64,000 bases of DNA, from IMG/VR virus record IMGVR_UViG_3300033977_000049, positions 23,975-87,974 of that record; one strand, written 5' to 3'. Numbering within the stretch: position 1 is the first letter of the stretch; every line of letters starts with the position of its first letter. Positions 59,487 through 64,000 of the stretch are shown here, piece by piece. The notes beneath the pieces are model-generated. The model was not told the origin of the DNA, ran no database searches, and saw only the letters and a program-made list of their open reading frames with translations. The stretch comes from a virus. The position numbers were made by a program, and so were the translations under genes.

Positions 59487-59522
59487 TTTCAATAAGTTAA
59501 ATATTTTGGCACCGAGAGTGCT
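59487..59522 (+). promoter_or_regulatory. Sigma54 -24/-12 promoter with upstream IHF-like site
   Basis: TGGCAC-CGAGA-GTGCT (59507-59522; GG and GC 10 nt apart); TTTCAATAAGTTA (59487-59499) is one mismatch from WATCAANNNNTTR. Confidence 0.65.
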
Positions 59523-59530
59523 CTATATAT

Positions 59531-59975
59531 GGACGTCCGGGGAAACCCGGATGATCGAAATGGTTCTACCGCTCAGCACATAGTCCTAGATCGGGAATAC
59601 CTGATGCAACTAGGGGCGCATGGCTCAGAAATGCGGTATGAAAAAGCCGCAAGGCGAGACAAGTTCCCATAAGTCCTGTACGGAGGCAGGGAGCGCACCT
59701 GGAGAGCGCGGTGAGAACGTAGCCCTTAGCTAATAAGTGGTCCGGGCGAGGATAGCTCACGACTCTAGGATTCTCTCTTTTTAGATTATCAATCGCTTTG
59801 ATGCCTTAGCTTAGAAAAAACCGGCAGCATTATAAGTCAGGCTGCAACGGTGCGGGCAAGCGGAAACCGCGCTAAGGCATCTAAGCGGTTGATAATTTCA
59901 ATTGCAGGCATAAGTCCTGACCTATCGGCAGGCAGCGTTTAAAAGAGCAAACATGGCAACGTATCAAGCGTTATC
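59531..59975 (+). ncRNA. Long structured leader/ncRNA region
   Basis: No credible ORF; starts at predicted +1 with TCCGGG-GAAA-CCCGGA; many stems, some GNRA-capped; 26-bp stem 59785-59896. Confidence 0.6.
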
Positions 59976-59983
59976 GGAGGTAA

Positions 59984-60325
59984 ATGATATCCATGATTAA
60001 AATATTCTATCATGGAACTTCAAGTAAAAATCTTAAATCCATTCTCAAGATAGGCCTGCTTCCCGGTAACGGAAGAAATTACCAAGAAGATATTTGGCTA
60101 AAGAACCATTGCCAAAAGGGGGTTTTCATGGATGCCCAGGCTAGTGTAGCTCAACACTATGCCGAAATAGCAGCGGGTAAATATATTCCCAACAGTCAAT
60201 TAGGGCAACCTGTTATATTGGCGGTGAGAATAAATCCAAAAAGATTACATCGCGATATAGCCGCAGGTGGAGCGGCTTATTTTTGTACTTCTAGAATACC
60301 CCCTAAACATATAAAGAAAATCTAA
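59984..60325 (+). CDS. ADP-ribosyltransferase/Tpt1-like fold protein
   Basis: GGAGG RBS; FYHGTS...I...GL.P, GVF....A..YA, ILAV, IPP..I. Confidence 0.6.
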   Translation: MISMIKIFYHGTSSKNLKSILKIGLLPGNGRNYQEDIWLKNHCQKGVFMDAQASVAQHYAEIAAGKYIPNSQLGQPVILAVRINPKRLHRDIAAGGAAYFCTSRIPPKHIKKI

Positions 60326-60338
60326 TTTTGGAGGCTTT

Positions 60339-60494
60339 ATGTCATTCCTAGATTACGTTAGGGAATACGGAACAATAGCAGTCGCGCAAGCTCTAAAAGC
60401 GGTTGATGAAGAGGTTGCGGATTCCCGCATCAAAACCGGTGACCAGGAATATGACCCTCTGACTTTTCAAGATTCGATTCTTTATTGGAATTAG
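60339..60494 (+). CDS. Small acidic protein (51 aa)
   Basis: GGAGG RBS; MSFLDYVREYG...ILYWN*. Confidence 0.7.
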   Translation: MSFLDYVREYGTIAVAQALKAVDEEVADSRIKTGDQEYDPLTFQDSILYWN

Positions 60495-60738
60495 CTTTGC
60501 CCTTGCCCCTAATTGAGCGCTAAATGCTGCTAGCCAGGAAAGAAGGTCCAATTTAACGGACGCGAGTGGCGGGTCAATTCACTTATAGAATTGCGGGTGT
60601 TTAGCCTATTAGGGGCAACATGGAAAGCTAAATCAAATCGGAAGCGGAAGGAAATTAAATTAGCTTTACTCCCGGCCTTGAGTAATCTCAGGGCCGTATG
60701 GAAAGTTAATCTAAAGAGAAAGCTAAATGGAGGCTGTA

Positions 60739-60837
60739 ATGTCTTGGAAACTACGTGTACGTTTTTGGATTATGTACTTTCGTCTGATCCCAATAGCCCT
60801 AAGAATGGGCAGGCGACCACATATTGTATGGTATTAA
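60739..60837 (+). CDS. Cationic hydrophobic peptide (32 aa)
   Basis: GGAGG RBS; MSWKLRVRFWIMYFRLIPIALRMGRRPHIVWY*. Confidence 0.55.
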   Translation: MSWKLRVRFWIMYFRLIPIALRMGRRPHIVWY

Positions 60838-60859
60838 AAAGACATGATTCAAGAATCAG

Positions 60860-60987
60860 GCCGGGCCTTTCCCGGCAAACAGGATAGAAGCTCAGGCTGA
60901 AAAGCTGGCGAGAGCTTGACCTGCTCAATAGTGTCCCACTTATCTGCAAAGCGGAAAGGCGAGAGGATTGAGAAAAGGATTAACATG
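60860..60987 (+). repeat. Structured leader repeat, copy 1
   Basis: ~128-nt near-identical to 63099-63226, ending at ATG. Confidence 0.9.
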
Positions 60988-62088
60988 CATAATCTAGAAA
61001 TCGTGGACGATAAAGCGTCTATGGTTTATGTCAGTAAATGGGGTAATCCTTGGCATGAATTAGGAACGCCCGTCGAAAATGCTATGACTGCCGTACAAGC
61101 CTTGGAATTAAGCCGCCAAAATTTCAAAGTCGAAAAGTTCCAACTTGAATTTCAGGGAAAGCCGGTTCCGGCATGGGGCATTTTCCGCACCGATTCAATG
61201 GGGCTTTTAGGAACCTGCGGAGAAGGTTATCTTCCAATTCAAAATGATGCACAATTCGACGCCATTGATGCTCTCTTGCAAGGTTCTGACGGTGCCCATT
61301 ATGATACCGCCGGGGTATTAGGTAAAGGTGAAAGAGTATGGGCCTTGGCCCGAATCCCCCAAGCCGATATCAATATCGGTTCCGATAAACACGAGGCCTA
61401 TCTTTTGGCATCCACTTCACACGATGGTTCCGAAGCATTTACTTTAAAGCTGGTCAATATTCGGGTGGTTTGCCAGAATACGCTAAGTATGGCGCTTTCC
61501 AGTAACGGCGCACTCGCCAGAATTCGACATACCAAAAACGCCCTAGGCCGCATGGAAGCAGCCAAAGAATATTTCAAGATGATCGAAAAGAACGCCCATA
61601 CCCTAGCCGAAAAACTACAGGTACTTGCTGGGCGTAACATGACCAAGCAAAGCTATATGCAGGTCATGGACCGCTTATTCCCTGTCAGGCGCGACCAACA
61701 GGGTAATATTGTGAACGCTACGCGCCGGGAAAACATCTTGAACGAAATTGTACGGTTGTACGAAAGCAATGACCGCAATGCGGTTCCTGAAGTCAAGGGC
61801 ACTGCATACAATCTCCTGAACGCTGTTACGGAATACACTGACCACTGCCGTAACGCTCGCATGACTGAAGATCGGGAAGAAGCCGGATATACCGTAAAAC
61901 AAGCCCGCGCTGAAAGCGCCCTGTTTGGATCGGGGGAACAATTGAAAACACGCGCCCTAGAAGTGATTCTTGAGGATACCAAGGGCAATCCGGTTCATAC
62001 TATCCAGCAGTGCGCCGCCCCTGCGGTTGAAATGCTACAAAGCACGGGTAGCGCCTTGCTCGATCAGGTAATTGATGAGAATAACTAA
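60985..62088 (+). CDS. DUF932-like phage/plasmid protein
   Basis: PWHELG, YLPIQN, TAGVLGKGERVW, SHDGS, RVVCQNTL, IRHT, GTAYNLLNAVTEY.DH; true start MHNL at 60985. Confidence 0.85.
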   Translation: MHNLEIVDDKASMVYVSKWGNPWHELGTPVENAMTAVQALELSRQNFKVEKFQLEFQGKPVPAWGIFRTDSMGLLGTCGEGYLPIQNDAQFDAIDALLQGSDGAHYDTAGVLGKGERVWALARIPQADINIGSDKHEAYLLASTSHDGSEAFTLKLVNIRVVCQNTLSMALSSNGALARIRHTKNALGRMEAAKEYFKMIEKNAHTLAEKLQVLAGRNMTKQSYMQVMDRLFPVRRDQQGNIVNATRRENILNEIVRLYESNDRNAVPEVKGTAYNLLNAVTEYTDHCRNARMTEDREEAGYTVKQARAESALFGSGEQLKTRALEVILEDTKGNPVHTIQQCAAPAVEMLQSTGSALLDQVIDENN

Positions 62089-62209
62089 GATTGGCTAGCC
62101 AATACTGGCTAGCATAACCCCCACACCATTGCGTAAGCCCCTTTTAATAAGGGCACGGGGTATACAAAAAGCTGGGGGTTATGCTGGCTAGTAATGGACT
62201 GGAGGGAAC

Positions 62210-62287
62210 ATGAAACTATCTTGCCGCATTATGCACGCAATATGGCTTTTCCTGTTGCGGCATCATGTAGTAAAGTTTGTTGTTTAG
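62210..62287 (+). CDS. Cationic hydrophobic peptide (25 aa)
   Basis: GGAGG RBS; MKLSCRIMHAIWLFLLRHHVVKFVV*. Confidence 0.5.
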   Translation: MKLSCRIMHAIWLFLLRHHVVKFVV

Positions 62288-62349
62288 TCTTGCTCCCGGC
62301 CCTGAACAATTTCAGGGTCGCATGGAAAGCCAAATTTTTGGAGGAAAAC

Positions 62350-63099
62350 ATGTGCAACTTTGCTTCAGGAATACTCACAAAAGACAAAGAATTTTGGTGC
62401 GATACATCTGATTCGCACGAGGATATTATACAAAAACACGGCCTGCACGAAGATGGGGCGCAAGGCCCCAATCTGCTGAAATACGAACTTCTCCCTCCGG
62501 TAAATGGCGAAAACCTTTTCAGCCTTGCTGAATGGGAATTCAAGATCGACCAGGATATTAAGCCGGAATGGGTGAAGGGGAATGAAGAAGAAAGAGCGCG
62601 AGCGGCGTTCTTACGAAGATTCCCTGATTTTGGCAAGCGCAAGCTGAGCGCGGATGGGAGCCTTAATTTGAGTAGCCTGACTACACTGCCCGCCGATGCC
62701 AAGCTGAGCGTGGGTGGGGACCTTTATTTGCGCAACCTGACCTCACTGCCTGCTAATGCCAAGCTGAGCGCGGGTGGGAACCTTGATTTGCGCAACCTGA
62801 CTAAGCTCCCTGCTAATGCCAAGCTGAGCGTGGGTGGGAGCCTTGATTTGAGCGGCCTGACTACGCTCCCTGCTAATGCCAAGCTGAGCGTGGGTGGATA
62901 CCTTGATTTGCGCAACCTGACTAAGCTCCCTGCTAATGCCAAGCTGAGCGCGGGCGGGGGCCTTAATTTGAGTAGCCTGACTACGCTGCCTGCTGATGCC
63001 AAGCTGAGCGCGGGTGGGAACCTTTATCTTATCAATGCCTTACAAGGTAAGGAATTGCCCGCAGGTATTACCATTAAAGGCAGGGTTATATATTATTAG
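62350..63099 (+). CDS. Leucine-rich-repeat protein
   Basis: GGAGG then MCNFASG; 20-aa KLS(A/V)GGxLxLxxLTxLPAxA repeats. Confidence 0.85.
   Translation: MCNFASGILTKDKEFWCDTSDSHEDIIQKHGLHEDGAQGPNLLKYELLPPVNGENLFSLAEWEFKIDQDIKPEWVKGNEEERARAAFLRRFPDFGKRKLSADGSLNLSSLTTLPADAKLSVGGDLYLRNLTSLPANAKLSAGGNLDLRNLTKLPANAKLSVGGSLDLSGLTTLPANAKLSVGGYLDLRNLTKLPANAKLSAGGGLNLSSLTTLPADAKLSAGGNLYLINALQGKELPAGITIKGRVIYY
62641..63030 (+). repeat. 60-bp tandem repeat, six full copies plus one partial
   Basis: Units begin aagctgagcg every 60 nt from 62641 to 63001. Confidence 0.95.
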
Positions 63100-63226
63100 C
63101 CGGGCCTTTCCCGGCAAATAGGATAGAAGCCCAGGCTGCAAAGCTGGCAAAGGTTCGACCTGCTCAATAGTGCCCCACCTATCCATAAAGCGGAAGGGCG
63201 AGAGGATTGAGAAAAGGATTAACATG
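63099..63226 (+). repeat. Structured leader repeat, copy 2
   Basis: Near-identical to 60860-60987. Confidence 0.9.
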
Positions 63227-63418
63227 CAAAAACCTCAAATCGAATTGCGAAGCAAACTTTATCTTTTACCGGGCATTATTGGCCTGCAAGATGCGTTTAT
63301 GGCCAATCCCCGCATGTCGCCTAATGAATATCTTATGGCCGAAATAGCCTGGAGGGAGTTTATAAACGAAAAGCGCGGGGAATTTCTTTTGCGATTAACC
63401 CGGCCTTATCCGAATTAG
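63224..63418 (+). CDS. Hypothetical protein (64 aa)
   Basis: Start MQKPQ directly after the leader repeat. Confidence 0.6.
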   Translation: MQKPQIELRSKLYLLPGIIGLQDAFMANPRMSPNEYLMAEIAWREFINEKRGEFLLRLTRPYPN

Positions 63419-63445
63419 GTTCAAAGTACTAGTACTTTAGTGCTG

Positions 63446-63474
63446 TTGACATTTTCTTGCAAACAAGATATAAG
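63446..63474 (+). promoter_or_regulatory. Sigma70-type promoter
   Basis: TTGACA-17 nt-TATAAG, preceded by perfect palindrome AAAGTACTAGTACTTT (63423-63438). Confidence 0.7.
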
Positions 63475-63612
63475 GATACTTGATCTTGTGCAAGCTAGGC
63501 GAATAGATAAGGGCTGCCTTTATGCAGCTACGGTTATTTACCTAGAATCAGGTGGGTGTGTAAAGGGCTGCCTATTTGCGGCCACGACCACCCACCAAAA
63601 AGTTTTAGTTAT

Positions 63613-63695
63613 CGCGGGAGAGTGGACACGGATATATAAACCACGCCAGCCCCATAAGCTGGAAATAGCCAGTTCGACTCTGGTTCCCGCAACCA
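63613..63695 (+). tRNA. Atypical tRNA-Met(CAT), initiator-like acceptor stem
   Basis: CGCGGGA/TCCCGCA-ACCA; D stem GTGG/CCAC; anticodon arm CCAGC-CCCATAA-GCTGG; T arm GCCAG-TTCGACT-CTGGT. Confidence 0.8.
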
Positions 63696-63881
63696 ATTTT
63701 AATCCGCTGGCCTTATGGCGGCTCTAAGGACTAACAGCGACTTCACCCTACCTCTGCCTTAGTGGTTTATGACAGCGGATTTTCCCAAAGCGTGTTATAG
63801 TTTCGAGGTTAGCATTGCTCGTGCCCATCAGGATATCCCACTGATGGGCGTTATGGAATGCTAATCTAATTTGGAGGAATC

Positions 63882-64000
63882 ATGTGCAATTTTGCTTCAG
63901 GAATACTCACAAAAGACAAAGAATTTTGGTGCGATACATCTGATTCGCACGAGGATATTATACAAGAACATGGCTTGCACGAAGATGGCGTGCAAGGTCC
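63882..64000 (+). CDS. Paralog of 62350 LRR gene, truncated by window edge
   Basis: MCNFASGILTKDKEFWCDTSDSHEDIIQEHGLHEDGVQG; DNA near-identical to 62350-62468. Confidence 0.85.
   Translation, partial: MCNFASGILTKDKEFWCDTSDSHEDIIQEHGLHEDGVQG

Follow-up and report, generated by a model that had tools for sequence, protein, structure and literature searches.

The early genes of phage T7 contain RNase III sites, which are related structured elements that recur between cistrons, just upstream of the ribosome-binding sites (RBSs). Each site is one irregular hairpin with some 20 pairs or more; cutting by RNase III leaves hairpins behind that are protective, and it can influence how the following gene is translated. 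In T4-type phages, PeSL cassettes occur as short repeated intergenic units in the variable, accessory-gene part of the genome, where a G/C-rich stem-loop closely follows the upstream ORF and is combined with an early promoter, strong and sigma70-like, that has an AT-rich region upstream (PMC2839356, PMC4122927). The PeSLs flank ORFans and unrelated genes, and they have been proposed to supply the stretches of homology through which gene modules are shuffled (PMC2839356, PMC4122927). A duplicated leader that can be compared with both systems was found in an uncultured peat phage (IMG/VR record IMGVR_UViG_3300033977_000049; 87,974 bp), of which a stretch of 64,000 nucleotides (the window) was analysed. 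The features of the locus, in window coordinates, are:

60739-60840, plus strand: 33-amino-acid ORF before copy 1, with a GGAGG SD, read from the sequence only
60860-61003, plus strand: leader copy 1, with a core at 60860-60987 and likeness extending about 16 nt beyond it (repeat search, alignment, BLAST, CM)
60860-60876, plus strand: P1 hairpin of copy 1, with six G-C pairs and a 5-nt loop (CCUUU), followed by AAA
60880-60923, plus strand: predicted central domain of copy 1 (element positions 21-64), with a GCU-GNRA-AGC hairpin
60924-60972, plus strand: predicted 3' domain of copy 1 (positions 65-113), with the closing helix CUCAAU/AUUGAG
60975-60987, plus strand: translation-initiation region of copy 1 (SD AAGGA at 60975-60979, 5-nt spacer, ATG at 60985-60987)
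60985-62088, plus strand: gene after copy 1, coding for a DUF932 protein of 367 amino acids (PF06067, E 7e-52; phrog_1221, E 1e-69)
62350-63099, plus strand: gene before copy 2, coding for a protein of 249 amino acids with about six tandem repeats of 60 nt (20 amino acids)
63099-63242, plus strand: leader copy 2, with a core at 63099-63226 (sequence, repeat search, alignment, BLAST, CM)
63099-63115, plus strand: P1 hairpin of copy 2, adjoining the stop codon of the repeat protein gene
63214-63226, plus strand: translation-initiation region of copy 2 (SD at 63214-63218, ATG at 63224-63226)
63224-63418, plus strand: ORFan of 64 amino acids after copy 2, without Pfam or PHROG match

A repeat search of the window aligned 60860-61003 with 63099-63242 over 144 nt at 87% identity, and the 128-nt cores have 114 of their 128 bases in common (89%), the 14 differences comprising 13 transitions and one transversion. 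With copy 1 as BLAST query, copy 2 was recovered from the 87,974-bp record with an E value of 3e-44, and no third full copy was found in this record, which is 89% complete and of which the last base lies 774 bases past copy 2. The 5' edge of the repeat is sharp and coincides with the first G of the P1 hairpin. In copy 2, this G is also the final base of the TAG stop codon of the upstream gene, whereas P1 of copy 1 starts 19 nt past the stop codon of the 33-amino-acid ORF. The 3' edge is gradual and fades about 19 nt inside each coding region. An ATG closes both cores, with AAGGA 5 nt before it in each. A first-pass annotation of this DNA had proposed a leader duplicated at these positions, running to the start codon and preceding unrelated genes, and it was right in all three respects, as comparison of the DUF932 product with the product of the 64-amino-acid ORF revealed no relationship. 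DUF932 proteins, whose function is unknown, are widespread on mobile elements. Twelve DUF932 homologs share the MHNLE start of the peat phage protein, and the 64-amino-acid product matched only itself among 5.8 billion proteins.

Like a PeSL, each copy carries a GC stem-loop (P1; six G-C pairs, -12.2 kcal/mol in copy 1) at or shortly after a stop codon, namely 0 and 19 nt past it. Likewise, the setting, with an ORFan and an accessory DUF932 gene downstream, is where T4-type phages carry repeated stem-loop cassettes. Unlike PeSLs, the copies share no promoter-like site. Indeed, a promoter scan, which need not recognise the promoters of the host, found no plus-strand promoter inside either copy, and the only promoter-like site nearby (63068-63096) is not part of the repeat and is unmatched at copy 1. 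By eye, the sigma70 and sigma54 motifs within the element were poor and not conserved from one copy to the other. The peat phage unit is also longer than a PeSL and runs on past the SD and the ATG to include the first codons. PeSLs recur in many copies, and here two full copies, one of them preceding an ORFan, and one further P1 junction were found in a record that is 89% complete. Finally, the peat phage does not seem to be T4-like, judging by its terminase, for which IMG/VR contains no close relative; the repeat protein has no IMG/VR relatives either. The T7 RNase III sites differ from the leader in another way, as P1 comprises only six pairs and the remainder is a multi-stem predicted fold of uncertain reality. 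Long near-perfect stems at 59780-59901 and 62099-62197, in neighbouring intergenic regions, resemble RNase III substrates more than the duplicated leader does. Other repeated hairpin-plus-SD leaders (repeat family D4) are present in neighbouring intergenic regions of the same gene block.

Compared with the cis-regulatory leaders and riboswitches of Rfam 15, the element has a similar length, predicted stems, and a position directly before the SD, but it matches no family, was found in one phage only, precedes no coherent set of genes, and leaves its SD mostly unpaired in the predicted ensemble. No Rfam 15 family reached its gathering score anywhere in the window, and at E <= 10 the region 60400-64000 gave four weak matches, none of them on either copy, in agreement with the earlier statement that the leader does not match familiar riboswitch or ribozyme consensuses. 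With ARAGORN, neither tRNA nor tmRNA genes were detected in the window. Pattern scans of IMG/VR, made with sequences of 16 and 22 nt, the 17 nt of P1, and a gapped pattern of the 3' domain, returned no further copy; what they matched was chance 16-mers, the hairpin alone (13.6 bits), or an AT-rich repeat resembling an operator. Similarly, no other copy was found by blastn in INPHARED and PLSDB or by a CM search of 3 + 151 Acidobacteriota genomes. A single DUF932 query retrieved no IMG/VR relatives, and an alignment of 12 close DUF932 relatives led to loci at most 52% identical (IMG/VR, JGI metagenomes, and GTDB genomes). The element was absent from 105 DUF932 loci (blastn, nhmmer, and CM), a set returned by the collection scans that does not include the closest DUF932 relatives (P0002-P0012; 54-72% identity). 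These other DUF932 genes have their own, unrelated leaders, indicating that the leader of the peat phage is not tied to DUF932. One DNA run, a peat metagenome and probably the sample of origin, contained the element, and no RNA runs were listed; the contigs of that run carried the leader with zero variant letters.

The differences between the copies are unevenly placed. All 14 are confined to the central 78 nt (span p = 0.006) and none falls in positions 1-20 or 99-128, so that the hairpin and a region around the ATG of the size of a ribosome footprint are the best-kept parts. The longest difference-free run, of 30 nt, is unremarkable alone (p 0.28). The central part has diverged by 18%, and the share of transitions exceeds the baseline of about 0.66 in the same run (p ~0.03). 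This excess and the confinement of the differences to the central 78 nt are two weak hints. P1 has the same sequence in both copies and is present in all predicted folds; on the plus strand it is followed by AAACAGG in copy 1 and AAAUAGG in copy 2. It also occurs at a third junction. In the contigs of the peat run, at a depth of 16.9, P1 and its AAA (to 63118) are fused directly to 62340, i.e. to the SD and ATG of a paralog of the repeat protein, without the rest of the leader, indicating that P1 behaves as a separate module. The initiation region sits within the invariant 30-nt stretch (positions 99-128). Its SD and AUG are mostly unpaired in the predicted ensemble, with or without flanks, the unpaired probability of the SD being 0.4-1.0 over all folded contexts. 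The loop of P1 (CCUUU) is able to pair with the SD (-4.4 kcal/mol duplex), although this match is 5 nt only.

The reading that accounts best for these observations, and that we hold with about as much belief as doubt, is that of a reused intercistronic cassette, in which a post-stop hairpin and a spacer of loose structure precede a translation-initiation region that is conserved. The junction would be reused in a plus-strand accessory-gene block at the end of the peat phage genome. At or just past the upstream stop codon, the six-pair GC hairpin, predicted to be very stable, would stabilise the upstream message, as a 3'-end or processing element, or would weakly terminate it. A spacer of about 95 nt would follow, probably loosely structured. 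Lastly, the AAGGA, the 5 nt, the ATG, and the first six or so codons, identical in both copies, would provide a strong, exposed initiation region. This unit may have been copied by recombination ahead of the second, unrelated gene, which would give both genes one junction and one initiation context. The position of P1 relative to the stop codons, the edges of the repeat and its presence in two copies only, the identical ends around a variable centre, the exposed SD, the constant formation of P1 and its recurrence at a third junction, the nature of the two downstream genes, the hairpin-plus-SD repeats and long stems of the neighbouring regions, and the lack of DUF932 specificity all argue for a reused cassette. 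Against it stand the absence of a sigma70-like promoter common to the copies, as present in PeSLs, and the lack of a plus-strand U-tract after P1, which thus is not a canonical intrinsic terminator. Moreover, the transition excess and the number of differences in tolerated pairs (see below) both hint at a pairing constraint on the spacer that a cassette does not require, and two copies cannot separate neutral divergence of the centre after duplication from relaxed constraint.

A specific structured cis-regulatory RNA, i.e. a protein-binding operator or a riboswitch-like element with a nested three-domain fold (P1, 21-64, and 65-113) that jointly controls both genes, is rather unlikely. In its favour, the plus strand folds better than the minus strand, with nested MFE folds of -44.0 kcal/mol for copy 1 and -39.0 kcal/mol for copy 2, versus -37 and -39.4 kcal/mol. 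Copy 1 folds better than shuffles (z -2.76), but copy 2 hardly does (z -1.08), and the central domain of the latter refolds with context; this domain holds eight of the 14 differences and its predicted fold is unlike between the copies. In the alifold consensus of both copies, which has 34 pairs, one pair (33:54) changes in a compensatory manner from U-A to C-G, eight further tolerated changes affect a single side of a pair, and the GNRA loop survives the sole transversion. Nine differences in tolerated pairs compare with about five expected (p 0.02-0.065) and, together with the predominance of transitions, favour a conserved fold. However, tolerated changes are expected anyway because 13 of the 14 differences are transitions. 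Indeed, in alifold energy and SCI the two real copies are no different from copies mutated by random transitions (p 0.2-0.6), and placing the changes of one copy on the MFE fold of the other breaks four pairs and keeps six, or breaks two and keeps four, no better than random. In all, four tests of fold preservation on the 14 differences gave p values of ~0.4, ~0.4, ~0.7, and 0.03-0.06, so that the earlier claim that the differences preserve the fold did not reach significance. The CUCAAU/AUUGAG closing helix is invariant and hence carries no covariation information, and no significant covariation was obtained from two copies. In addition, a riboswitch is recognised as an aptamer in many genomes with covarying pairs, which was found neither in IMG/VR, INPHARED, and PLSDB nor in the 105 DUF932 loci and 154 Acidobacteriota genomes. 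The absence of a common known function of the two downstream genes and the predicted exposure of the SD likewise weigh against a regulatory RNA.

A non-functional duplication scar would be a segment with a hairpin and an RBS that illegitimate or homologous recombination had copied and that is now drifting, with only the generic RBS being of importance. The restriction to two copies of 89% identity without relatives, the diverged centre, the mostly null structure tests, and the depth of the copy-2 centre (4.5 versus 16-27 in the sole run containing the element), which suggests a variable arrangement, are consistent with such a scar. The perfectly kept ends next to a variable centre, the transition excess, and the return of P1 at the third junction speak against this explanation, which is unlikely. 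Less likely still, the 128-nt unit may be an undescribed regulatory RNA with the nested three-domain fold and a possible loop-to-3'-domain contact, through which a phage or host factor would co-switch two early accessory genes (DUF932 and the ORFan); it would then be the first member of a family limited to peat phages of a little-sampled lineage.

A product of the minus strand, either a cis-antisense RNA over the RBS ending at the P1 complement or an antisense protein of 45 or 61 amino acids, is very improbable. In copy 1, the minus-strand hairpin has a T-rich tail behind it and was marked as a possible terminator, a weak promoter-like site lies at 61034-61007, and one frame is open through both copies. 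The tail and the promoter-like site are, however, absent or unconserved at copy 2, the repeat does not include the promoter-like site, and minus-strand folds are not superior to those of shuffles (z -1.45 and -0.53). In the antisense ORF, the 14 differences cause nine replacements versus one synonymous codon, indicating that this frame is not under protein-level selection. On the plus strand, an N-terminal extension from TTG 60916 or GTG 63170 is open in frame, with three synonymous and two replaced codons; it was rejected, as these starts are unlike between the copies and lack an SD, and the 12 DUF932 homologs start at MHNLE.

The first-pass annotation had further predicted that the leader forms a double pseudoknot, in which the P1 loop region (positions 6-12) pairs with 95-101 (PK1) and 23-28 pairs with 81-86, crossing 65-70/108-113. 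Every proposed complementary segment is literally present in both copies, but complementarity of this kind is at chance level, with 10 and 12 complementary 6-bp windows versus 8.0 +/- 4.0 and 7.2 +/- 3.6 in shuffles. PK1 demands the closing pair of P1 and its entire 5-nt loop, and thus part of a hairpin worth -12.2 kcal/mol, and PK2 contributes +0.3 and -4.9 kcal/mol by itself. Scored through its nested subsets only, the model reaches -13 to -18 kcal/mol, far from the nested MFE folds. Four of the 14 differences fall within its helices or loops, three of them within helices and all one-sided; three out of three tolerated transitions are expected in at least one case in eight. The same nucleotides pair in nested alternatives, and a plain nested fold tolerates all 14 differences as well as the pseudoknot model does. 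With neither covariation nor, by the nested-subset energies, stability above nested alternatives in favour of the crossing helices, a double pseudoknot acting as riboswitch, ribozyme, or nuclease block is hardly credible. As to these three roles themselves, the absence of a conserved family is the one observation that bears on them.

If the central domains were proven to have a conserved fold, they would represent a novel regulatory RNA, carried by a phage ahead of DUF932, but this claim would go beyond the present data. If the reading as a reused intercistronic cassette is true, the duplicated leader would be a further case, outside the T4-like phages, of repeated junctions by which phages place unrelated accessory genes under one shared set of expression signals. 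This would not be surprising, but it would help to understand the mosaicism of phage genomes.

Two copies of the leader, and exactly two, were retrieved from the whole record with BLAST and a covariance model. As the first-pass annotation had proposed, a core of about 128 nt is duplicated at 60860-60987 (copy 1) and 63099-63226 (copy 2), identical at 114 of 128 bases, and both copies end at a start codon and precede unrelated genes. Indeed, BLASTP gave no alignment between the two downstream products, the second of which matched only itself among 5.8 billion proteins.

60860-61003 and 63099-63242, + strand: direct repeat, two copies, 144 nt, 87% identity (repeat search)
Downstream of copy 1, + strand: DUF932 protein, 367 aa (PF06067, E 7e-52; phrog_1221)
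Downstream of copy 2, + strand: 64-aa ORF, without family match

The left edge is sharp and coincides with the first G of a hairpin, P1 (GCCGGG-CCUUU-CCCGGC). On the right, both copies end in AAGGA, five bases and ATG, beyond which partial identity dwindles until about +19 in each ORF. In copy 1, the stop codon of a 33-aa ORF (preceded by a GGAGG SD) lies 19 nt 5' of P1; in copy 2, the first G of P1 is the final base of the TAG stop of the upstream gene. The P1 region (positions 1-20) and a 30-nt block spanning the AUUGAG arm, the SD and the ATG, similar in size to the ribosome footprint at initiation, are invariant.

The record (87,974 bp), whose last 64 kb make up the window, is 89% complete according to CheckV. 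Minus-strand genes, including those for terminase, a portal or adaptor protein and tail fibres, extend to about 59.4 kb of the window, from where a plus-strand block continues to the contig end (G+C 0.46-0.49, versus about 0.40 before it). At its head, a sigma54-like -24/-12 motif (TGGCAC, five bases, GTGCT; 59507-59522) is separated from the first ORF, at 59984, by a non-coding stretch of about 460 nt. Directly 3' of the 64-aa ORF, TTGACA, 17 nt and TATAAG were seen by eye (63446-63474), a site absent from the promoter scan because the latter demands T at the last position; the non-coding stretch that follows carries twin GGGCTGCC hairpins (repeat family D5) and a weak tRNA-like match (63622-63684; 17.4 bits versus a gathering score of 29), where ARAGORN found no tRNA. 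The block also encodes a 249-aa protein with about six tandem repeats of 60 nt (20 aa; 62580-63059), for which no relatives were found in IMG/VR, and its paralog, which begins at 63883 (63883-64000 in the window), is 93% identical at the N-terminus.

Only one public run, a peat metagenome that is probably the sample of origin, contains the stretch, and no RNA run was listed. Its contigs contained no variant letters in the leader; in the repeat-protein region, many variant contigs reached a summed depth of up to 950x. In one contig (depth 16.9), P1 plus AAA (to 63118) continues straight into 62340, where a repeat-protein paralog has its SD and ATG; thus, P1 also exists without the remaining 108 nt and acts as a module of its own. 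Depth in the centre specific to copy 2 (63126-63226) was 4.5 versus 16-27 in its flanks, so that the arrangement at this junction seems variable in the population. Both observations point to variable or additional arrangements past the contig end.

The reading that survives best, although evenly balanced, is a reused intercistronic cassette. A post-stop hairpin, P1, would stabilise or delimit the upstream message, a spacer would separate it from the initiation region, and the latter, strong and conserved, would serve the downstream gene, recombination having placed a copy before a second gene. This reading is drawn from the invariant P1 and initiation block, the exposed SD (P1 was present in every computed fold, with SD and AUG mostly unpaired), the absence of a U-tract after P1 and of promoter-like sites on the plus strand inside the repeat (promoter scan), and the hairpin leaders and stems nearby. 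Indeed, a second leader family, made up of a hairpin with compensatory changes in its arms, YAUGGAAWG, GGAGG and ATG, precedes other plus-strand genes (60610-60640, 60668-60740, 62290-62350 and 63822-63885); two of its copies were retrieved by the repeat search as family D4, a repeated hairpin-plus-SD type. A mini-ORF of three codons begins with this AUGGAA in all but one of the four copies (ATG GAA AGC TAA, ATG GAA AGT TAA and ATG GAA TGC TAA). Similarly, two long, near-perfect intergenic inverted repeats (59780-59901 and 62099-62197; arms of 31 and 25 nt, 87-88% complementary, 60 and 49 nt between them) would, if transcribed, be long enough as substrates for double-strand-specific RNases.

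It is rather unlikely that the leader is a specific regulatory RNA structured by a nested fold. An RNAalifold consensus of P1 and domains 21-64 and 65-113 (34 pairs) fits all 14 differences, with one compensatory change (33:54, U-A to C-G) and eight that are one-sided and tolerated. The idea that the differences preserve a fold did not hold up against a null in which either copy was mutated at random (13 transitions and one transversion) and the analysis repeated. When the changes of one copy were scored on the MFE structure of the other, four pairs were broken and six kept, or two broken and four kept (p 0.35-0.7), no better than random.

Consensus statistics of the two copies (observed; null; p)
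Alifold energy (kcal/mol): -33.55; -32.6 +/- 4.2; 0.2-0.6
SCI: 0.81; 0.80 +/- 0.08; 0.4-0.6
Differences in tolerated consensus pairs: 9; about 5; 0.02-0.065

In addition, the predicted fold of the copy 2 central domain changes with context. All differences are confined to the central 78 nt (p 0.006), in contrast to a longest difference-free run that is not unusual (p 0.28), and 13 of the 14 are transitions against a share of about 0.66 among variant letters of the peat run (p about 0.03). Transition excess and clustering are weak hints that allow, and do not establish, some pairing constraint in the centre; such signals are inflated, as the element was chosen for looking compensatory. That the repeat is a non-functional duplication scar is unlikely too.

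A minus-strand product is very improbable; a frame is open in both copies, but the differences cause nine replacements and one synonymous codon. As for an N-terminal extension, the reading frame set by the downstream ATG stays open 5' of it, but candidate starts differ (TTG or GTG) and are without an SD; all 12 DUF932 homologs (54-72% identity) start at the same MHNLE. The leader is not coding. The double pseudoknot first proposed is hardly credible: its helices were all found in both copies, but complementary 6-bp windows (10 and 12) are at chance (about 8 +/- 4 for 128 nt of this composition), the pairing of the P1 loop region would consume the closing pair and whole 5-nt loop of P1 (-12.2 kcal/mol alone), the second pseudoknot is weak (+0.3 and -4.9 kcal/mol), and nested subsets of the model (-13 to -18 kcal/mol) are far less stable than ordinary nested MFE folds (-44.0, z -2.76, for copy 1; -39.0 kcal/mol, z -1.08, for copy 2). 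Its helices or loops cover just four of the 14 differences, and the nested consensus, which takes in all 14, is an equally good fit. No test possible with two copies supports this exciting structural interpretation.

The annotation's failure to match a known riboswitch or ribozyme was borne out by Rfam 15, which was empty for the whole window at gathering score and gave nothing overlapping either copy at E <= 10 over 60400-64000. Four patterns searched in IMG/VR yielded chance matches or the bare hairpin only, and blastn against INPHARED and PLSDB found no further copy. Terminase, DUF932 and repeat protein revealed no close relatives of the phage in IMG/VR. Alignment of close DUF932 relatives led to 105 loci (<=52% identity; IMG/VR, JGI metagenomes and GTDB genomes; without the contigs of the closest relatives, P0002-P0012), the three named genomes being Acidobacteriota MAGs. 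The element was absent from these loci (blastn, nhmmer and covariance model), and the covariance model had no match in 154 Acidobacteriota genomes. The DUF932 genes there have their own conserved, unrelated leaders, indicating that the duplicated leader is not a DUF932-family feature. Such conserved non-coding leaders were seen about 100-140 nt upstream of the DUF932 genes at loci L024, L025 and L026; in one group, the SD is preceded by two hairpins and an operator-like perfect palindrome (ACACTGTAAT-N-ATTACAGTGT type), and an Acidobacteriota group of 12 loci shares another, different leader.

The leader is real, duplicated and orphan, without a match among known families, and is of modest significance unless diverged copies appear. 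RNase III sites lie between cistrons in phage T7 and may represent a second analog. Among described elements, PeSL cassettes of T4-type phages come closest; these consist of a G/C-rich stem-loop with an early promoter, are repeated around ORFans and are proposed to be where modular gene shuffling takes place (PMC2839356, PMC4122927). Unlike PeSL, the leader has no recognisable promoter of this kind, so that it is PeSL-like at most in part and falls outside that class.
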